This document shows, piece by piece, positions 20,862-37,261 of a stretch of DNA of 64,000 bases. The position numbers and the translations under genes are program-made. Within the stretch, counting starts at the first letter, position 1. The number at the start of each line of letters is the position of its first letter. The stretch comes from a virus (lineage: Duplodnaviria; Heunggongvirae; Uroviricota; Caudoviricetes). Below the pieces are notes generated by a model. That model was not told where the DNA came from and ran no database searches. It was given only the letters and a program-made list of their open reading frames with translations. The DNA lies in IMG/VR virus record IMGVR_UViG_3300021399_000096. One strand, written 5' to 3'.

Positions 20862-21080
20862 ATGAATTGGACACTTTTTTGGATTCTTTTAGGATTTGGT
20901 ATTGGAAACTTAATAGGTTTCGGATTATGGTTACATGAATATATTCATGAAAAGCATAGTATAAAATGGTATAAAGATGGAAAATTTTGGCTATGGTTTT
21001 TCTATACATTATTATTTGGCATTGCATATGCAGGTCTTAAATTAATTTTGTTTATTGTTAGTTTAATTAGAAAAAAATAA
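20862..21080 (+). CDS. small membrane protein
   Basis: Two hydrophobic segments. Confidence 0.6.
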   Translation: MNWTLFWILLGFGIGNLIGFGLWLHEYIHEKHSIKWYKDGKFWLWFFYTLLFGIAYAGLKLILFIVSLIRKK

Positions 21081-21082
21081 TT

Positions 21083-21625
21083 ATGAAAACATATACAATA
21101 CATAAAGGGTGCCATTACTCTAATTTCTTTCCAAGAATTCAATTGCTTTCTCGTGTTAATTATCTGTCTCAACATGGGTGTATTGTGTTTGATGAGAGTT
21201 GTAAATATGAAATTGATGAGGCATCATGTGTGAATAAATTGTTTGGATTTTGTTTTGGATTTGGCGTTCATAAAAATTCTATTAGATTTGGTTGGACATA
21301 CAATGCGCCAACAAATCAAATTTATATTTGGAAATATTTTTATATTAACGGAGAATTAGAAAAAGAAAAAATATTTGCAGGTGAGGTTGGTGAACCACAT
21401 TTCTATGAGATAATAATGGATAAAGCAAATAATGATAAAGATACATATTTCATTACATTAAGAATTGATAATAAACAAGTATATCCAACAGATAATTTTT
21501 ATGATACAATAAAATCAAATAAATGCTTTGTAACAACGCTTGGTCCATATTTTGGCGGAAATACAAGAGCACCTCATACAATGAAAATTGAGTATTATGG
21601 CCGTGAAATGACAAAAGCTTGTTAA
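21083..21625 (+). CDS. hypothetical protein
   Basis: 180-aa ORF. Confidence 0.65.
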   Translation: MKTYTIHKGCHYSNFFPRIQLLSRVNYLSQHGCIVFDESCKYEIDEASCVNKLFGFCFGFGVHKNSIRFGWTYNAPTNQIYIWKYFYINGELEKEKIFAGEVGEPHFYEIIMDKANNDKDTYFITLRIDNKQVYPTDNFYDTIKSNKCFVTTLGPYFGGNTRAPHTMKIEYYGREMTKAC

Positions 21626-21627
21626 TT

Positions 21628-21816
21628 ATGAAAAAGAAAAAAGAAAATACAATAGACATTGTTAACAAATTATTGAAACACCAATGTGATTATTGTTGTT
21701 GGTATTATGAACCTCGAGGGTGTGAATGCCCATTTAATATGAGAGATTGGGCATGTGAAGAAGCTAGGAAAGAACAAGAACGAGATAAAGAGTATTTAAT
21801 GAGAAAATTTAGTTAA
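21628..21816 (+). CDS. small Cys-rich protein
   Basis: CDYC...CEC...C. Confidence 0.5.
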   Translation: MKKKKENTIDIVNKLLKHQCDYCCWYYEPRGCECPFNMRDWACEEARKEQERDKEYLMRKFS

Positions 21817-21822
21817 TTAATT

Positions 21823-22056
21823 ATGATGGAAGAAAATAAAGAAAATGCATATTTAACATGTGGTTGCGCTTGGCAATGTTATTCAAATCGGCGTAGAGAA
21901 GAACTATATAAAAAAGCATTGCAAACAAATGATCCGGCAGATTGGGGAAAAGTTCCAATGATAGGCGCATTAATTGATTGTTTCAATATGGACTGTTTAA
22001 TGCGTAAAAATTATAAACAGGCAATGGAAAATTTAAAAAAAACAAAAATTAAATAA
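21823..22056 (+). CDS. small Cys-containing hypothetical protein
   Basis: 77-aa ORF in the tight gene train. Confidence 0.5.
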   Translation: MMEENKENAYLTCGCAWQCYSNRRREELYKKALQTNDPADWGKVPMIGALIDCFNMDCLMRKNYKQAMENLKKTKIK

Positions 22057-22210
22057 GTATTAAAAATGGAAGAACTTGTATGGACTATTAATATATTTGG
22101 TTTAGAAGTCAGTTGGACAAAATATAAATTACATAATTTTTATCGTGATCCAAATTATAGTTTATTCTATATTGGGCATTTACGTTTCTATAAAAAATAA
22201 TTAATAAAAA

Positions 22211-22519
22211 ATGGGATTATCTAGAAGATATACATTGACTCTTATCAGGGAAGATGTAACAGATGAAGGAGTAGTAGTAAAAGAACTACCGCAGATTATA
22301 TGTCAATTCAAGCAATCTGAAAATGAATTAAGAATGTCATATCTAAATGAAAACATTATGGCAGAAATGGTAGTAGACAAATTGTGTAACGGGATAAAAC
22401 AAGAATTAAGAAACCCTAATCAAGCAATGAAAAAAGATGATGGAAATGAAGAAATAGAACAAACTATTATTCCATTATGCAATCCAATTTTACCTACTGA
22501 TTTTTTCAATAAAAAATAA
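22211..22519 (+). CDS. hypothetical protein
   Basis: 102-aa ORF. Confidence 0.55.
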   Translation: MGLSRRYTLTLIREDVTDEGVVVKELPQIICQFKQSENELRMSYLNENIMAEMVVDKLCNGIKQELRNPNQAMKKDDGNEEIEQTIIPLCNPILPTDFFNKK

Positions 22520-22530
22520 ATATTTTGAAT

Positions 22531-22740
22531 ATGAAAAGATGTGAAACTAGATTAGTATTAGAAAGAACAATAATAGAAGATGACGATACAAAAATAAAAC
22601 TTCCAGATATTTATGTTGAGGGGATAATAACATAGAAAAATTATGAAGATGCAAAACAGATGAATATTGATTTAGATTCTGAAGTTTTTCATTATATGTA
22701 TGTTGGATTATGTAAAAAAATAATAAAAAATAAGAAATGA
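22531..22740 (+). CDS. hypothetical protein (69 aa, code 15)
   Basis: One in-frame TAG at 22633. Its TGA overlaps the ATG of the next gene (ATGA). Confidence 0.45.
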
Positions 22741-23561
22741 AAAAATTTTTAATAGGTTTATTATGTTTAATATGTTCCTTATCATCTTATGCATATGATT
22801 GGGAACATGTTTCTTTAAATGGTGGTGGTGATATTATTGCTAATTATACTTGGCGTGGTTTTGCGCAAGGCGGTGTAAGTTTCCAACCTTGGGTAGAATT
22901 TTCTGCTTATGGAGTAACCGTTGGAACTTGGGCATCTGTTGGTTCTGGAGTTTATTCAGATTTTTATAAATTAGTTCCGGAAATTGATATTTATTTGTCA
23001 TATACGACTCCGGGTGATTGGGTGACTGCAATGGTTACTCACTATTATTATTTTGGCGGTGAAAAATATTTTAATTTTGCATATGACAAATCACTTGCCG
23101 GAACAACTCAAGATGAAGTTGAATTAATAGTTCGTCCATTAATGTTTATGGAAGAAAATAATGGGTTAGAAATCGGCGCAGCTGTTATGATTGGCGGCGG
23201 TGATTATTTTTCCGGTAATGGTGAAGAAATAGAAAAAGATGCAAATACATATAAAAAGTTATATTCAACTTATGTTTATTTTAGATACACTCACGAGATT
23301 GAAAATTGGACTATAAAATCAGAATTAGGTTTTTCTCCAAATCCTTCAATGTATACATATTATGATCCAATAAAAAAGAAACATGAATGTTTTGCATTGA
23401 ATAATTTAGCATGTTCTGTTAATTATTCATTCTTTAATAATAATATTATAAACGCATATGTTTTAGCCGGAATCAGATTCAATTTATTTGATGTTGGTTG
23501 TGAAAAATTTGCATATGGGAAAAACTTTGGGTGGAATTTAGGTATTGGATTTGAATTATGA
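22737..23561 (+). CDS. outer-membrane beta-barrel, TorF/TIGR02001-like putative porin
   Basis: Signal peptide, ANYTWRGFAQ motif, alternating aromatic strands, terminal LGIGFEL beta-signal-like end. Confidence 0.6.
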   Translation: MKKFLIGLLCLICSLSSYAYDWEHVSLNGGGDIIANYTWRGFAQGGVSFQPWVEFSAYGVTVGTWASVGSGVYSDFYKLVPEIDIYLSYTTPGDWVTAMVTHYYYFGGEKYFNFAYDKSLAGTTQDEVELIVRPLMFMEENNGLEIGAAVMIGGGDYFSGNGEEIEKDANTYKKLYSTYVYFRYTHEIENWTIKSELGFSPNPSMYTYYDPIKKKHECFALNNLACSVNYSFFNNNIINAYVLAGIRFNLFDVGCEKFAYGKNFGWNLGIGFEL

Positions 23562-23755
23562 TGGAATATAAATTTTTACATGGATTAATTAGATTTAATT
23601 GGCATGCATTACCATTAAAAGATAATTGGAAACATTTAAAGTTTTCATTACGGGAATTCAAAAACTGAACATTATTTTAATTTGCATCTTGCTTATAGAT
23701 TTCAATTTCCATTTATTAAATTAGGTTTTGATAATATATGGAAATTTATAAAATA

Positions 23756-23792
23756 AAAAATGCAATTAGAAACCGATTCTAATTGCATTTTT
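23756..23792. terminator. intrinsic terminator
   Basis: AAAAATGCAATTAGAA-ACCGA-TTCTAATTGCATTTTT. Confidence 0.7.
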
Positions 23793-23902
23793 AAAACTAT
23801 TTTTATTTTTTATTCTATAATATTTAAGTTTAGGCTTATATGAAATACCGTAAAGTAATGTAAGTTTAAAAATTTGTTTAATAAAAAATAAATTTTAAAA
23901 TT

Positions 23903-24547
23903 ATGAAAAAAGAACTAGACTTAAAAACAATTGATTCAAAAGAAAAAGCATTTCTTATTGGCACAGCATCCTCACATCTTATTAAGTATTGGAAAGATTC
24001 TAAAGAATTATTAGCTAAAAACATTTTACGTGTTGAATGGTGTTTAGCATCATTTAATGATAATTTATCTAAAGGAGAAAATCAAAAAGAAATTATTAAA
24101 AATTGGTTTATAAGAAATTTTGGTGATTATATTGATAAAATAGAAATTACACCAAATATATTTGGAAATGAAAACTGGTGGCTTATTATATATTTTAGAA
24201 TAACAGAAGATTCTAAAAATAATATTGAAAAATATATTCCAGTTAAAAAAGATTTATATGATTATTATATACGTGGGATGTTTGGAAGTTATTCATTTAG
24301 ATCAAAATCACCAGTTTCATATACTTCATCAAAGTATTACCCATTTTGTATATTAGGAAATAATAATTTTTTAAAAACACTCTCTAAAAAATTAAAAGAT
24401 TACTATAATTTAACTGAATATCATCTTCATATTGATAATTCACCAAAAAAATTTGGTTATTTAAGTTATTCAAAAAATAAAGAAAATACTGAATATTTTA
24501 ATTCAGTTTTTGAAAAAACTCAAGATTTATTTGATTTTGAATTTTAA
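23903..24547 (+). CDS. degenerate free-standing LAGLIDADG-like homing endonuclease
   Basis: IDSKEKAFLIG and YYIRGMFG resemble the two LAGLIDADG helices, but the catalytic acidic residues appear replaced. Confidence 0.5.
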   Translation: MKKELDLKTIDSKEKAFLIGTASSHLIKYWKDSKELLAKNILRVEWCLASFNDNLSKGENQKEIIKNWFIRNFGDYIDKIEITPNIFGNENWWLIIYFRITEDSKNNIEKYIPVKKDLYDYYIRGMFGSYSFRSKSPVSYTSSKYYPFCILGNNNFLKTLSKKLKDYYNLTEYHLHIDNSPKKFGYLSYSKNKENTEYFNSVFEKTQDLFDFEF

Positions 24548-24556
24548 ATAATAACA

Positions 24557-24588
24557 AATGCTATTAGAAAATCAATTCTAATAGCATT
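24557..24588. terminator. intrinsic terminator, near-twin of 23756-23792
   Basis: AATGCTATTAGAA-AATCAA-TTCTAATAGCATT. Confidence 0.65.
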
Positions 24589-24599
24589 CTTTTTAATTC

Positions 24600-26134
24600 T
24601 AGGACACTTTAATTGCTTAATAATTAAAATCTATATTAATCTTTTTATATGTTATTAAAATTAAAAATAATAAATTTATAATATTTAAAAAATAAACTTA
24701 AATAAATATAAAAAGATATTATTTAATATTATTATAAATGCAAACTATAAAATTGAAATATTCAATTTCTTCTCAAGAAGATTAGTTATTACTTAATGAA
24801 TATATTAGGCAATATAATTCAGTTTATAGAGTTGCATTTAATTGTCTTCAAAATAAAACTAAATTAAATATATAGAATTTAAATAATATAGAAAAACTAG
24901 ATTCTTGGTTTATATAGTCAGCTAATTATGATGCTAAATTTTTATATTCATTAAATGAAACTAACAAAGTTATATTTGGAGGAAAGAAAAACTTCTTTAA
25001 TAGATTAAAAGGCTTAATAACTAAAGAACAATATAAACAAAATAGATTAGTTCCACTAACTAGTTTTGGAGAAAAATCTAGTGGAACAAAACATGTTCAT
25101 GGAAATAGAAAATTTAAACTAAATGAAACATTATAGTTTATCATTTTAAAACTTAAAGAAAGAAAAATCTAGATTGAACTTCCTAGACAATTACACTAGA
25201 ATTATAAAAAATTATTAATTGAAGTTTATAAACATCAAGTTCAAGATGATATTGCAATAACTTATAAAATTGATTTGAATTATGTTTATATTTAGTTTGA
25301 TGAAACTATAGTTCTATAGAATAAATAGTTTTATAAACAAATAAACAATAGAGTTCTTGGTATAGATATGAATCCAAATTATATTGGTTGGTCTATAGTT
25401 GATTGGAAATCAGAAGCAGAATTTAAAATTATTAAATCTGGAATTTATTCTATTAAAGAACTTAATAATAAAGATTTTAGTCTTAAAGGAAAAGGATTTT
25501 CTAGTAACTCTAAAGAAAGACAATATATAACTAATAAAAGATAGTTTGAAACTATCTAGATAGTTAAGAACATAATTAATAAAGCAATTTATTATAAATG
25601 TTAGATAGTTAGTATTGAAGATTTAAATATGAAGTCTTCAGATAAAGAATTAGGAAAACATTATAATAAATTAGTTAATAATTCCTGGAATAGAAACTAG
25701 TTTGTTAATAATCTCTAGAAGAGATGCAATATATTTAATATTAAACTATTAAAAGTTAAACCAGAATATAGTTCTTTTATAGGGAATTTCCTTTATAGAA
25801 GTCTTTAGAAACCAGATATGGTTCTTGCATCTATAGAACTAGGAAGAAGAGGCTATGAATTTTATAACTAGTATATATTAAAAACTAAAGAAATAAAAAA
25901 GAATATAGTTAGACCAAATCTAACTAGTTTTAAAAAGCTATATCTTAAGTCATTGGAAGAATTTAATTTATAGCCAAACTATAAAGACTTGATAGAACTA
26001 TATGCTTATTTCAAAAAGTCTAAAATTATGTATAGACTTTCTATAGATTAGTTTAATTTATAGTTTTCTAGTTTGTTTTCAACTAAATCCTACGTAGGTT
26101 AGTTTATAAATAATTTTCATAAATTATTATAAAA
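24600..26134 (+). mobile_element. candidate non-autonomous IS200/IS605-like (IS1341-type) element; ends approximate
   Basis: tnpB without tnpA. Hairpins at the 3' end (CCTACGTAGG palindrome in AACTAA/TTAGTT; TTTATAAATAATTT-TCAT-AAATTATTATAAA). A 12-bp IR (ATCTTTTTATAT/ATATAAAAAGAT) lies upstream. Confidence 0.45.
24738..26132 (+). CDS. tnpB: TnpB-related (IS200/IS605 family) RuvC nuclease, 464 aa, code 15
   Basis: One frame ATG 24738 to TAA 26130 with about 20 TAG and no TAA/TGA. RuvC-I VLGID(210)MN, RuvC-II SIE(294)DL, RuvC-III KPD(360)MVLASIELGRRG, plus VIFGGKK. Confidence 0.85.
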
Positions 26135-26196
26135 CAAATACATTATCATCTTCAAAATTAAAAATCTTCAAATACATTATCTTCTTCAAAATTAAA
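26135..26196. repeat. 28-bp direct repeat (1 mismatch) separated by 6 bp
   Basis: CAAATACATTATCATCTTCAAAATTAAA (26135-26162) and CAAATACATTATCTTCTTCAAAATTAAA (26169-26196). Confidence 0.9.
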
Positions 26197-26817
26197 CCTG
26201 GAGTGTTTTCTGCGAATAATATGATTATCTTCAATATCATTCAATTCAACATAATAATCCTTAGATTCTTTCACAACATCATCAAGATTTTCTAGCATAT
26301 CTGCTATAATTCCTTTAAGTCTGACTTTAAATGCAGGATCAATTCCTCTGTCATTTATAAGTTCTTCCATTTTTGCTTTTAGTTTATATGCAGAAACTGC
26401 AGTATTAACCTGAGCAATATTGACACGATATGCAAATTCTTGTCCGATTTTAGATTGGCGTTTGTCTTCGCCGTATCTTTTCTTTTTCAGATTATTGACA
26501 TTATCTATTTTAGATGATGAAGACAAATGATAGATATTTTCTGTGAGAATTTTTCTGATAGCGATATCTGTCCCTTCTTTATAGGGAAAAACAAACCATT
26601 GAAGCAAATAATTATATTCCTCAAATGATGTAGACTATTGGTTTATTCGCTTCATTGACGCCTCCATGCATGTTTGGTAATCATCTGCATCTGCATATGT
26701 TTCACCGATTTTGACACGCGGAATAGATTTTCCGGCCATATAATCGGCTTTATATTGTTCAGGTGCATAGACATAAACAACAGTAAATGGATGTTCTATT
26801 TTCTTTTTCTTAGCCAT
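26158..26817 (-). CDS. GIY-YIG / T5orf172-like nuclease-domain protein (219 aa, code 15)
   Basis: Two fragments join at TAG 26635. Motifs VVYVY...VKIGET...KRINQQST...GQEF. Confidence 0.6.
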
Positions 26818-26821
26818 TTAA

Positions 26822-27217
26822 TTATGCTTTAGTTTCTTCTTTGTTTTCTTCAGATGATTCTTCTGGTTTTTCTTCTGACGTTTCTTCTTCAGATGGCAAT
26901 TCTAAATCTGCTGCAATATCAGATTCTTCTGACTTAGTTTCTTCAGATCCAATTTGATGGTCACGAATAAAACCAGAAACTTTGTCTGCAATAGTAATAA
27001 TATCATCCGTAGTTACATCAGACATTAACTTTGCAATATTGGTTGCAATTTTCAAAGACTCGATTTTGAGTTCTTCTTCTGTCATCTTTTTGTCTTCAGC
27101 AGATTCATTGACGTCATCTTCAAATAATTCATCTTCTGTAAGAAGATCTTCACCTTCATTCAAAGGTTTTTGCGGAAGCATTTGTTTTTCGATAAATTTC
27201 TTTAAATTAATATTCAT
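26822..27217 (-). CDS. acidic hypothetical protein, paralog of 28489-28839
   Basis: MTEEELKIESLKIATNIAKLMSDVTTDDII; also PLNEG and VNES motifs. Confidence 0.7.
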   Translation of the reverse strand: MNINLKKFIEKQMLPQKPLNEGEDLLTEDELFEDDVNESAEDKKMTEEELKIESLKIATNIAKLMSDVTTDDIITIADKVSGFIRDHQIGSEETKSEESDIAADLELPSEEETSEEKPEESSEENKEETKA

Positions 27218-27240
27218 AATTTTATATATTATATTTTTAA

Positions 27241-27624
27241 TTATCTGATATTTTTAATTTTCCCATTGTGTAAATAATTGAAATTTTTCAATTGTATACC
27301 ACTCATTATTTTATCTAATGTTATATGCAATTTGTCGCCAATCCCATAAGAAATTTTATAAAAACCTAAATTATTATCAAATTCGTAACATTTACATCCC
27401 CTCTTTTTAGAATTAGCGAGACGTATATTAATTTTTTCTTTACATTCATCTAATGTTCCACTAAATTCACATATAGCATTTTCAATATTTAAAGATTCAG
27501 GGTCAGTCCAAATTGTAACAACATAAAAAATATTATCTTCACCTTCATTTAAAGCTTTCTTAACTTCTTTAGCTACAGAAGTCATGATGCTTTCATACAA
27601 AGCCTTTTTGTTATCATTTTTCAT
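27241..27624 (-). CDS. leader-bearing hypothetical protein (candidate internal head protein)
   Basis: Starts MKNDNKKALYESIMTSVAKEVKKALNEG. Confidence 0.65.
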   Translation of the reverse strand: MKNDNKKALYESIMTSVAKEVKKALNEGEDNIFYVVTIWTDPESLNIENAICEFSGTLDECKEKINIRLANSKKRGCKCYEFDNNLGFYKISYGIGDKLHITLDKIMSGIQLKNFNYLHNGKIKNIR

Positions 27625-28509
27625 ATCTTTATCCTTTAATAAATTTTGCAAGTTTATTTCAAATATTTCCACAATACTTTTTTAATTTTTTGAATTTTCT
27701 CATTTTCTTTATTTTTATCCATATATTCCTTTAATTTGTCTTTCCACTAATCTCCATATTTTTGTTTAAAATACTTTACAAGACTTTGTGCAGAACGATC
27801 AACATTATAATCAGCTTTTTGTACCATTGCAACATTATTAGTATTATCTTCATTTCCAAAATAATATGTTGATTTACATAAATTACTATTTTTATCTATT
27901 AAATATTTTTTGCAAAGATTTGCTATATATTCAGCCGCTTCTTTATTATCTACAATAGGTATAACTAATTTTTGAGTGCTATTTAAATCATGCCATGAAA
28001 GTGTCTAATATGGACGATTAGTTGTTATATCAATATCAAAACCTAATTGTTTAATCAACTGACGTGTATTATCTTTATATGAAACATATTTTACTATAAG
28101 ACGTAATATATTATCTCCATAATAAAAATTTGAAATTTCATATTTAATATTTTTATTATTTAATGATTGAAAAGCTTTAGTATGTCTTTTTGCTGCATCA
28201 TCTATATTATCATGAAGATCCGGCATTGCATTTATTTTATTACTAAGTTCTTGCATCTGCTTAATAATTTTATTAGTTTCAACCCAATCATCTTTTGCAT
28301 CTTCTAACTAATTTTTAAGTTCATTAAATTTTTTAATTAATTCTTCTCTTTTACTAAATTCTTTTTGATCCTATCTATCTTTAATAGTAAGATCATCTAT
28401 ATCCTCATTCAATGCTTTCTTAACTTCTTTGGCGACAGCCATCATAATGTTTTCATACAAAGCTTTTTTGTTATCTCTTTTCATATCTTTATCCTTTAAT
28501 AAATTTTGC
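27546..28509. repeat. about 104-bp dispersed direct repeat (27546-27649 vs 28406-28509, offset 860)
   Basis: Ungapped alignment covering the upstream gene tail, AAAGGATAAAGAT, ATG and the leader codons. Confidence 0.9.
27654..28484 (-). CDS. leader-bearing hypothetical protein (276 aa, code 15)
   Basis: Starts MKRDNKKALYENIMMAVAKEVKKALNED and is open over 4 TAG to TAA 27654. Confidence 0.75.
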
Positions 28510-28839
28510 GAGTTTTTTAGCGATTTCAATAACATCATCAACGCCAACATTTGACATTAACTTTGCTACGTTGACAGCCTGACCAAGGGCTTTAACTTTA
28601 ATTTCCTCATCTGTCATTTTTTCAACTTCTTTCTTTTCATTTTCGATATCTTCTGTAGATGGTGCTTCGTCATCATCAAATTGCAAACCACCACCTTCAA
28701 AATAAGAATCTTCATCATTATTATCACTATCCAAATTAAATTCTTGACCAATTGCATTGCTATCATCATCGACTGATGCTACACTGACTTTTGGACCATT
28801 TGGATATGCACTTCTTTCTTTTCTTTCTCTTGGTTCCAT
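28489..28839 (-). CDS. acidic hypothetical protein, paralog of 26822-27217
   Basis: MTDEEIKVKALGQAVNVAKLMSNVGVDDVI. Confidence 0.7.
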   Translation of the reverse strand: MEPRERKERSAYPNGPKVSVASVDDDSNAIGQEFNLDSDNNDEDSYFEGGGLQFDDDEAPSTEDIENEKKEVEKMTDEEIKVKALGQAVNVAKLMSNVGVDDVIEIAKKLAKFIKG

Positions 28840-28969
28840 TATGTTTAAAAATATAATTTTATTATTTATTTTATATTAAAAACACTCAAAAAAACTTTTT
28901 TCTCAACCTGCCATAAAATAATTAATGTTAGTTATTCCGGTTAATAAATTTATTTTAATTATTAATTTA

Positions 28970-30793
28970 TTAAATACCTTTCTTGGTAGCTAAAGGAAAA
29001 TAGATTACTTCTGAATCTTTAGATTTCTTTTTCTTAGATTTTTTCTGAGATTTAGGAATGGTAAGATCTCCAGAACCATTAAACATATCAGAAGCCTATT
29101 GAGCACCTGTCATTGCTGCCCCTTGTGCTGGAACTACATTACCAATACCAACAGTATTCATTGGGGTATTGTAAGATCCTCCGACACCTCCACATTCTCC
29201 ACCACATTCGCCTTCAAACATAAATCCTTCAGTTACGGCTACATCGCCCGTTAAATCTTCGGATTGTTTTGCATCATTTTTCTTTCTTAATTTTTCAAGG
29301 CGTTTTTCATTATCTTCATATTGCTTTTGAATTTTTAAATATTTGTCTAAAATTTTATGACGTTTTTTAATGGATTTTTCCATTTTTTCTGGTTCTCTCC
29401 AATCATTAATCCATTTTTTGTCATTTTCACAAATATCTAATGCCTCTTTATACAATTCTAATATATCTTTTTTCTTTCTACTTTTTAATTTCCACCAAAA
29501 ATCATATTTTTCAAAATTTTTATCAGGTTCATCTGCTAAATTATCTAATGAAGTAACTCTATCAAAGAAATATTCAATTTGGCCAATAACATCCCATGCC
29601 CAACTTGATTCACGTTGTCTTTTAGCATCATTAAGAGTTTTTTTACATAAATCATATATTTGTTCAACCGTAGCTAAATTAATATCATATCTCATATCGA
29701 GTGGACCGTCACCGTCATTAGGATCATATCCCCAAGAACCTTCATTTAAAACAGAATTAAAGTCAAATGATTCATTAACTTTATCTTTAGTTAATAATTT
29801 GTACATTTCATCTTTATATTCTTGAAATGTTTTTATAAAATGAATTTTAGTTTTGGGTGCTTGATCAAAAATCTATTCTGTTTTTAAATTCAATAATAGT
29901 ATTGCTCTGCTAGAATCACCTGCACAAACAGATTTTTTAACTTGATCTTTCATATATGATTTAAATGTTTCATATGAAGATAGTATTTGTTGTTTTTCTT
30001 TTATTCTTTTTATTAAATCCTTTTCGCCTTTATTATATCGTTCTAATAAGTCTTTATACCCATCAAAGAAATTTTCAATAAATGACAAACGTATACCAAT
30101 ACCAGAATCATAATGATCACGTTTATTTAATATGTTTTGATCAATCATATTTAAAACATATTTTAATCTATCTAATAATTTTGAACTATCTGCCCACTAA
30201 TCTTTATCTAAATATAATTTGTATACAAATTTATAAAGTTCTTCATCACTTTTTAAATTAAAACTGCATAAATTAATATTTTCATCATCATATTCTATAC
30301 TAGTCAACCCGTCTAAATTAATATTATAAAACTCCCATTGTATCATATTGGCAACCAAACGATCTTTTTTATCATCTGTATCTTTTTTATGCCAATAATA
30401 TCTATTACAAAAAGCTCTAATTTTTTCAATATCTTCTATACTGGGATTTTTAATAATAAAGAAATTTTTTTGTTCCTCATGATCATATAAACAAACTACA
30501 TTTGCTCTCAGACATTCTTCTTCAGACATAAGACCATTCGATTCATTTAATGCATTTTTAATTCCTTTAGAAATTGCAGATACAATAGATTCATGAAATG
30601 GTTTTTTCCAATCAGGCGTAATTTGGTTTCCCCATGTATCAGAAGAAAACGGATCTTTGTTTCCGGCATCTTGCATTGCCATAAAGAATTTAATATTTTC
30701 TTTAGGTAAATGTACTGGGCAATTTGACACTCTATAATTTTCAGTGCCAATTTTGCCCAATAATTTACTTTTATTTGTATACTTAGATGCCAT
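28970..30793 (-). CDS. multi-segment hypothetical protein (607 aa, code 15), probable virion protein
   Basis: Three track ORFs join via TAG 30197, 29873 and 29096. Contains KPFHESIVSAISKGIKNALNES, VNES, VLNEG. Confidence 0.75.
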
Positions 30794-36861: not shown

Positions 36862-37261
36862 GGGCTCATTTGGCTTTGACTGCATTGATTTTGATTTGTA
36901 AGCATGTGACGCATTGAAGATACGCGTCTAATAAATGTTCTTTGAGAATAATTTAAATGGCGAAGAAAATTACGCTATGGCAGCTTGATCCGAAGTATAG
37001 TAAGACGGCTTAAGATTTTGCAAGGCAGAATCGACATACATCGCTCAATCCCATAATCCAAGGGTGAATTGATATAGTGGTGCAGGAATATTGGATATTA
37101 GAATTTGCGATGCTATTAAACAAATTCGAAACTATAATAGCTTAAGATATTGTTGGCTAGTTTGAGGTTTAGCAATATACAAAAATTAAATCAAACTAAA
37201 CATGTAGAAAGCAGATTGGAACATATGCAACACGTGGGTTCGATCCCCACTGAGTCCACCC
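36862..37261 (+). ncRNA. ssrA: tmRNA
   Basis: Acceptor stem GGGCTCA/TGAGTCC with the G3:U alanyl determinant, T-arm GTGGGTTCGATCCCCAC, discriminator A. Tag ORF 36959-36988 encodes (A)GEENYAMAA-TGA. Confidence 0.93.

Follow-up and report, generated by a model that had tools for sequence, protein, structure and literature searches.

The DNA analysed here, referred to as the window, is a stretch of 64,000 nucleotides (nt) from a giant rumen phage (Caudoviricetes; IMG/VR record IMGVR_UViG_3300021399_000096) that reads TAG as glutamine. At its positions 24639-26179 (+) lies an insert of 1,541 bp which carries a tnpB-like gene (24738-26132, +), and a convergent gene of 219 amino acids (aa) on the minus strand (26158-26817) overlaps the right end of the insert. 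With TAG read as Gln, the tnpB-like gene is an unbroken frame of 464 aa with 20 in-frame TAG codons, and the reverse strand of the same region is stop-rich. An earlier note on this DNA, made from the letters alone, had predicted this intact protein, and our translation agreed with it. The codons of the gene include 20 TAG, 11 CAA and no CAG, exactly as the note had estimated by hand, and the resulting 4.31 TAG per 100 aa is indeed the highest load in the window, the runner-up having 2.56. Under genetic code 11, the longest open frame in 24738-26132 is 58 aa, in line with the claim that the gene is untranslatable in that code. The same note had called the open reading frame (ORF) hidden from code-11 mining; this holds for gene callers that use code 11 but not for public records, in which the ORF is already called, since both NCBI and ENA contain an identical 464-aa protein without a name, on contigs of up to 484.5 kb. 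The GC content of the element region is 0.20, the lowest in the window, compared with about 0.29 for the window as a whole. Most long genes of the window require readthrough of TAG, so that the window behaves as a TAG-recoded phage, and 0 of its 56 genes end in TAG. The assignment of TAG to Gln was independently backed by the recoded copies of the gene, because CAA/CAG and TAG interchange among them at residues 25, 289 and 378, where Gln is conserved in standard-code homologs.

To characterize the 464-aa protein, we used an AlphaFold2 (AF2) model, which had a predicted local distance difference test (pLDDT) score of 91.3 and a predicted template modelling (pTM) score of 0.85. Foldseek returned full-length matches with a probability of 1.00 to Cas12f, Cas12k, ISDra2 TnpB, ISFba1 TnpB and Fanzor2. 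With the independent aligner VIA, the Z-scores were 17.1 for AsCas12f, 14.5 for ISFba1 TnpB and 14.3 for ISDra2 TnpB over model residues 1 to ~378-396, and residues 204-381 were aligned to T. thermophilus RuvC with a Z-score of 12.1. In both comparisons the full TnpB/Cas12f architecture is present, with an N-terminal WED/REC part followed by RuvC. The catalytic residues are D210 of RuvC-I (codon 25365-25367, +), E294 of RuvC-II (25617-25619, +) and D360 of RuvC-III (25815-25817, +); an alignment of 57 members with identities of 32-75% shows no variation in any of the three. A profile of this alignment matched Cas12f chains in the PDB at an E-value of 8.5e-4, spanning E294 to the YSS motif, and E294 sits in the ...EDL... 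motif of RuvC-II as aligned to Cas12f. The zinc finger is absent, because only 13 residues lie between YSS346 and D360, none of which is Cys or His across the family, and the whole protein has 3 Cys. Beyond the RuvC-III motif, about 90 residues are confidently modelled as helices and a strand. The acidic triad, the missing zinc finger and the C-terminal tail of ~90 aa had all been proposed from the sequence, and each was recovered here together with the RuvC fold.

The 464-aa protein had no match in Pfam, and the NCBIfam scores were below cutoff (TIGR01766, 17.8 bits against 32; TIGR01765, 15 against 47), giving only sub-threshold TnpB and Cas12b hints. PHROGs gave noise only and a single-sequence search of the PDB gave nothing. 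The curated TnpB models of Pfam and NCBIfam currently miss this TnpB family. In close homolog pairs, the ratio of nonsynonymous to synonymous substitution rates (dN/dS) over residues 1-370 was 0.08-0.21, well away from 1, and was 0.15-0.16 to the nearest relatives, L001 and L004; the protein is therefore under purifying selection. Judged by its model, the 464-aa protein is a genuine TnpB/Cas12f-type nuclease, with activity predicted.

A search for other copies and for empty sites returned both. In three related giant-phage contigs (L084, L085 and L086), the position equivalent to 24638 of the window is joined straight to that of 26180, and the flanks are 80-96% identical. The empty site reads ...AAAATCTATATTA^TC(T/A)TCTTCAAAATTAAA..., and the 1,541 bp of the window fall at the caret. 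The junction is ambiguous by ~4 bp, as ATTA is common to both sides. Apart from this shared ATTA, comparison with the empty site revealed no target-site duplication, a picture that the 28-nt repeat at the right end (see below) complicates. On an unrelated 104-kb contig, the nucleotide similarity of a copy with 75% identity begins 41 nt ahead of the ATG and ceases 21 nt past the stop. What copies in unrelated contexts have in common is confined to the interval from ATG-41/-134 to stop+14/+24, and in paralog pairs elsewhere the left ends lie 60-190 nt before the ATG and the right ends 14-65 nt after the stop. No clear transposon-associated motif (TAM) was found in the left flanks of the paralogous copies.

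The left end of the element (24639-24737, +) is 99 bp long; at 24699-24708 it contains TAAATAAATA, a motif conserved in the family. A strong terminator hairpin lies just outside at 24557-24588, so that the left end must carry the gene's own promoter. This hairpin is bidirectional in appearance, with a stem of 13-14 bp and T-runs on both strands, and is kept in the empty-site loci; the insertion point lies between it and the stop codon of the convergent gene. In the window, the left-end motif TARATAAATA was not enriched (5 found, 4.45 expected), and a scan for sigma-70-type promoters was at chance (20 found, 17.3 expected).

The right-end tip, CAAATACATTA (26135-26145, +), lies 13 nt past the stop and is the last sequence in common with copies at other sites; its ...TACATTA core is conserved in the family. 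Directly 3' of the tip, in the position of a TnpB guide, are 17 nt (26146-26162, +) that are identical to the empty allele of L085 (17/17) and match those of L084 and L086 at 16 of 17 positions. Considering the sequences, this is the relation that would be expected of a TnpB guide and its homing target. The insert ends with a 6-nt spacer and a second copy of the right-end tip (26163-26179, +). A 28-nt unit of tip plus target occurs at 26135-26162 and again at 26169-26196, 34 nt apart and 96% identical with one mismatch. The first copy corresponds to the L085-type allele and the second to the L084/L086-type allele, and the repeat is restricted to the lineage of the window and L001. Its origin could lie in a junction duplication with filler, or in a second event that left this remnant.

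The insertion falls within the convergent gene, which has no family match. Its last six codons were interrupted and replaced from the insert: the genes of the empty-site contigs L084, L085 and L086 end in ...FNFEEDNIDFNY-stop, whereas those of the window and L001 end in ...FNFEEDNVFEDF-stop. The new tail, NVFEDF-stop, is encoded within the insert, where 26158-26162 and 26163-26179 together encode the substitute C-terminus on the minus strand. The original 3' end, NIDFNY-stop, was displaced to the left flank beside the element (24617-24638, -), and the same codons end the empty-site genes. With the substitute end supplied by the insert, the host gene therefore stays intact. The sequence ...TATATTA at the end of the displaced segment is a candidate for the TAM side of the target.

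The 3' end of the tnpB-like gene also encodes a conserved RNA, an expectation of the earlier note that was borne out. Where residues were identical among 63 copies, the share encoded by identical codons rose from ~0.50 to 0.62-0.71 over residues 375-450. Corrected per pair for amino-acid-specific codon bias, synonymous-site identity was 1.22 times expectation over residues 375-455 with a peak of 1.44 times, and the synonymous rate (dS) drops over these constrained C-terminal codons in almost every pair. Nucleotide alignments showed near-invariant blocks and hairpins, in which the differences are compensatory and often synonymous. Three helices were obtained with RNAalifold. In a count of their 27 pairs in 35 sequences, 89.8% of cells were paired, compared with 30-46% when the partners were slid, and both sides had changed in a compensatory manner in 22 of the 27 pairs. 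The covariation score was 0.418, whereas sliding the partners gave no more than 0.095 and shuffling the alignments gave 0.156 (0/500 shuffles reached 0.418). Helix A (25937-25974, +) is a long hairpin whose invariant loop lies within UCAUUGGAAGAAUUU; all nine of its outer pairs (9/9) have compensatory changes, one of them occurring as GC 12, CG 7, UA 4 and UG 3. Helix B (26015-26040, +) pairs 26015-26022 with 26033-26040 in 94-97% of cells, and some of its compensatory changes leave both encoded amino acids as they were (Ser TCT to TCG with Arg AGA to CGA). Helix C (26041-26063, +) pairs 26041-26048 with 26056-26063 in 90% of cells, with both-side changes in six of eight pairs. The RNA lies on the sense strand, as judged by its frequent G-U pairs. 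Near the stop codon lies a variable hairpin, H3 (26081-26104, +), which was judged by eye without a formal count; the window has CCTACGTAGG where L004 has CTTATATAAG, and by eye the outer arms are compensatorily different in L005 too.

A covariance model built from these sequences matched the window once and the empty-site loci not at all, and it recovered every held-out copy at the 3' end of tnpB on the sense strand, including the most distant members. Two weaker matches of 43 and 41 bits, at L027:2505-2612 and L070:6298-6430, lie outside the tnpB copies that retrieved these loci and could represent orphan modules of guide RNA, or else what remains of neighbouring copies. Searches against Rfam gave no family at E<=10 over 24300-26500 and none at the gathering score in 20 family loci; RAGATH-18 is covered by this search only if it is in Rfam 15, where we take it to be present. 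The covarying 3' RNA is new and lies outside every Rfam family. Based on the sequence, a putative guide-RNA scaffold (omega-RNA) is likely encoded at ~25937-26145, by the last ~65 codons together with the short right end. In RNA libraries of two independent studies (runs X1 and X2), contigs cover 25665-26088 with zero differences. Both end at 26088, beside a 10-nt palindrome that may simply break assembly; such contigs show neither transcription, strand nor ends, and missing cover elsewhere proves nothing. A third RNA run contains an L004-type copy that crosses the right-end boundary. These contigs are compatible with expression of the element, to which they add a weak indication.

More than 2,809 relatives of the 464-aa protein were found in metagenomes, falling into 979 clusters at 50% identity. 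Among GenBank phages, tblastn detected 2-5 copies at 60-70% identity in each Prevotella Lak megaphage, and a match of 46% identity, covering 97% of the length, to the ISCaje4 TnpB of Campylobacter phage CP220. This family is therefore not a new one: it is already catalogued through ISCaje4 TnpB and belongs with IS607-type elements. An ORF of ~200 aa for an IS607-family serine transposase lies directly upstream on the same strand in 13 of 79 IMG/VR loci, one of which (L007) is a TAG-recoded Lak-like copy. The transposases of these 13 loci score 172-177 bits with NF033518, for which the cutoff is 110, and have Resolvase and MerR-type helix-turn-helix (MerR-HTH) domains. No tnpA was found anywhere in the 64-kb window, which agrees with the earlier observation that none is adjacent to the gene. 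Since tnpA is present in relatives but not here, the window copy is a tnpA-less derivative. No array-like repeat family was found at 21000-30000 of the window, nor any CRISPR array within 4 kb of the element.

A scan of prokaryotes with one genome per species (185,579 species) gave 22 loci, all of which were in metagenome bins and none in isolates; the lineage is therefore essentially phage-borne. Two family copies (L087 and L088) were found on JBGVNW010000068.1, a 360-kb contig labelled as a Bacilli metagenome-assembled genome, which may be a mis-binned jumbo phage because the family is phage-distributed. One Lak-like paralog (L006:3001-3681) is interrupted: with TAG read as Gln its frame stays open for just 226 aa, although its DNA similarity to L005 persists, and it looks like a decaying copy among intact neighbours.

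In a maximum-likelihood tree, the TAG-bearing copies form one clade of 15 members (support 99/98), inside which the window and Lak copies lie, and a separate TAG-bearing trio lies outside it. Both groups are nested among standard-code copies, and no reversion was seen within the 15-member clade. TAG-recoded megaphages, among them the Lak phages of human and animal guts, harbour a large branch of TnpB that is restricted to phages. A gene with 20 in-frame TAG could be translated only where TAG is decoded, and the lineage is therefore tied to TAG-recoded phages. The recoded copies have 6-19 CAA plus CAG codons, about as many as their standard-code relatives, in addition to 7-20 TAG (9-20 in the clade of the window). 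At the 20 TAG columns of the window, Gln makes up 12% of the residues in standard-code copies, the rest being mostly Lys, Glu or Asn. TAG therefore mostly adds glutamines and does not replace existing Gln codons. This excess may derive either from mutation pressure or from selection for a translational lock. That the extreme TAG load is adaptive and not drift, with the late code switch of the phage used as such a lock, seems to us rather doubtful. If true, the nuclease would appear only at a late stage of infection, at which both replicated genomes and those of co-infecting phages are available; the element would be both a gene drive and a phage-phage weapon, and would represent a TnpB lineage with a new class of omega-RNA, without a zinc finger, confined to TAG-recoded megaphages. 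The excess at non-ancestral positions is also a handle on the question whether stop-codon recoding serves to time or confine expression.

Taken all together, we consider 24639-26179 to be, with a probability of about 80%, a tnpA-less, code-locked and RNA-guided homing element, an IS607-type derivative that lives in phages. The earlier note had offered a code-locked selfish element and a domesticated nuclease as alternatives; the empty sites, the copies in unrelated contexts, the IS607 transposase of relatives and the nested TAG clade support the former, and the latter was left unsupported. In the proposed mechanism, the tnpB transcript would be processed into the scaffold plus ~17 nt beyond the right-end tip, and in a sibling phage infecting the same cell, the ribonucleoprotein would cut this locus where it is still uninterrupted. 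Repair by recombination from the element-bearing genome would then copy the element into the cut locus. Overall, this would amount to RNA-guided homing, analogous to that of the T4 homing endonucleases. ISDra2-type elements reportedly follow the same homing logic, which is said to have been set out by Meers et al. in 2023.

A nuclease that has been domesticated and is now immobile, serving as a programmable weapon or a DNA-processing enzyme against competitors or the host, would also lack a transposase in the window and be under purifying selection, and a guide-position match to sibling phages would suit the exclusion of competitors. However, the exact site is polymorphic for presence and absence between phage regions that are 80-96% identical, several paralogous copies per genome lie in differing contexts, and IS607 TnpA is still present in relatives. 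The guide, moreover, matches the element's own empty site and not another locus. We therefore regard domestication as unlikely, while competitor exclusion and homing are compatible with each other. The loss of tnpA and the visibly broken copies in the family, such as L006 with its ORF of 226 aa, could instead mean that the window holds a stranded insertion-sequence fragment without function, in which the conserved 3' RNA structure is inherited baggage. Such an inactive relic would not be expected to keep an intact 464-aa frame with an invariant catalytic triad, nor a dN/dS of 0.15-0.16 to L001 and L004, and compensatory changes maintain the RNA helices inside the recoded clade; this explanation is more improbable still.

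Least probable of all, in our estimation, is that the 3' structure is a cis-acting mRNA element for stability, translation control or termination and that the nuclease is not RNA-guided, even though the processed RNA is predicted only, no Rfam family matches it and the zinc finger is absent. The ISDra2 and ISFba1 omega-RNAs overlap the 3' end of tnpB, run to the right-end tip and have a size similar to ~210 nt, and both the position and the size (~210 nt) of the structure in the window are as in these RNAs. The N-terminal WED/REC part that holds the RNA is structurally present (aligned from residue 1), and the scaffold is followed by 17 nt that match the empty site. Several points do weigh against RNA-guided homing as we propose it. 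RNA processing and DNA cleavage are steps that we infer for every member of the family, and the 464-aa protein lacks the C4 zinc finger that most TnpBs have, so that the activity of ISDra2 TnpB should not be presumed for it. The RNA structure was derived from the same sequences that were used to test covariance, and the RNA-library evidence consists of contigs alone, with DNA carry-over being possible. The left boundary is fuzzy, as the left flank of L004 resembles that of the window for ~13 nt. The left flank ...TATATTA differs from the right-end tip ...TACATTA by one base, which leaves the avoidance of self-cleavage unexplained, and the 28-nt duplication (26135-26162, 26169-26196) may have arisen in more than one way.

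Immediately next to the tnpB element, a segment of 979 bp (23571-24549) carries a TAG-free ORF of 214 aa (23903-24547) with a GC content of 0.21 and no family match. The segment is present in the window and L086 and not in L001, L002, L084 or L085, and is thus a second, independent presence/absence polymorphism. The 214-aa ORF was considered as a degenerate TnpA and rejected: BLASTP to IS607 TnpA gave an E-value of 0.013 with 22% gaps, and the ORF had neither a catalytic-Ser motif nor a family match. A further segment of 1,244 bp (27245-28488) is present in the window and not in L001 or L002, and L084 aligns to it only through short repeated pieces (27544-27658, and from 28405 onward). No transfer RNA (tRNA) was found in the 64-kb window, and ARAGORN called a transfer-messenger RNA at 36862-37260 (+), within a block of minus-strand genes. 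In L005, L031, L040 and L072, phage tRNA clusters lie at most 3 kb from the element, with seven tRNA matches upstream in L005.

Comparing the element with known systems, the closest named relative is the ISCaje4 TnpB, whose gene is annotated in Campylobacter phage CP220 (NC_027997; Timms et al. 2010, PMC2853527). It belongs to the same protein family, has 465 aa, is phage-borne and has the same 3' RNA module (L039). In contrast with the 20 TAG of the window copy, ISCaje4 uses the standard code with 0 TAG, and a resolvase-type TnpA survives upstream as a remnant of 80 aa, of which the window copy has none. ISCaje4 is listed under IS200/IS605, whereas the transposases of intact relatives are those of IS607. 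ISFba1, an IS607-family element with a right-end RNA (reRNA) (PDB 8IAZ; Ren et al. 2024, PMC11061315), resembles the window element in its fold (VIA Z 14.5), in its 3'-encoded RNA and in the serine-recombinase TnpA found in relatives of the window element. The window element differs in that its RNA is outside Rfam at a permissive threshold, the zinc finger is missing, an extra C-terminal part of ~90 aa is present and the lineage is essentially confined to phages. ISDra2 TnpB with its omega-RNA (PDB 8H1J, 8EXA; Karvelis et al. 2021, PMC8612924) shares the architecture (Z 14.3 over residues 1-378), the D-E-D triad of RuvC, an omega-RNA overlapping the ORF end and a guide taken from the DNA beside the right end. 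The identity is nevertheless ~10-12%, and ISDra2 has a C4 zinc finger, a Y1 transposase partner, a bacterial chromosome as its location and the standard code.

AsCas12f (PDB 8DZJ/8J12) is the best structural match (Z 17.1, Foldseek E 1e-9) and the best profile match across RuvC-II. Unlike Cas12f, the window element has no CRISPR array within 4 kb, is mobile and has a single guide that would be set by the insertion site. The C4 zinc finger has been lost in some large, virus-enriched branches of TnpB such as RIIIr-4 (Altae-Tran et al. 2023, PMC10691335), so it is typical of TnpB but not strictly defining. RIIIr-4 is similar to the window family in lacking this finger and in being enriched in viruses, but it is described with His replacing the Asp of RuvC-III, where the window family has the invariant D360; this comparison was made by description. 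Our literature search found no paper on TnpB in TAG-recoded phages, and an analogous blind spot in gene calling has been described for archaea with the pyrrolysine (Pyl) code in a preprint. The present TnpB branch escapes both code-11 gene calling and the current Pfam and NCBIfam models. Being compact (~460 aa) and without a zinc finger, and having a defined covarying scaffold, its enzymes are candidate miniature genome editors.

In its predicted lifestyle, the element is most like the homing endonuclease genes of T-even phages, with presence/absence polymorphism between sibling phages and, as proposed, an empty allele that is cut and then receives the element by recombination. The target would here be recognized by RNA and not by protein, and there is no relationship in sequence or fold. 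The element-bearing and empty alleles with a matching guide form a natural before-and-after pair, which makes RNA-guided homing in phages directly testable. The element departs from a textbook TnpB element in having no zinc finger and no transposase, an uncurated RNA, confinement to phages and a clade in genetic code 15. What is new here is the covarying RNA, the three empty sites, the match between guide and empty allele, the substitute gene tail and the single TAG clade.

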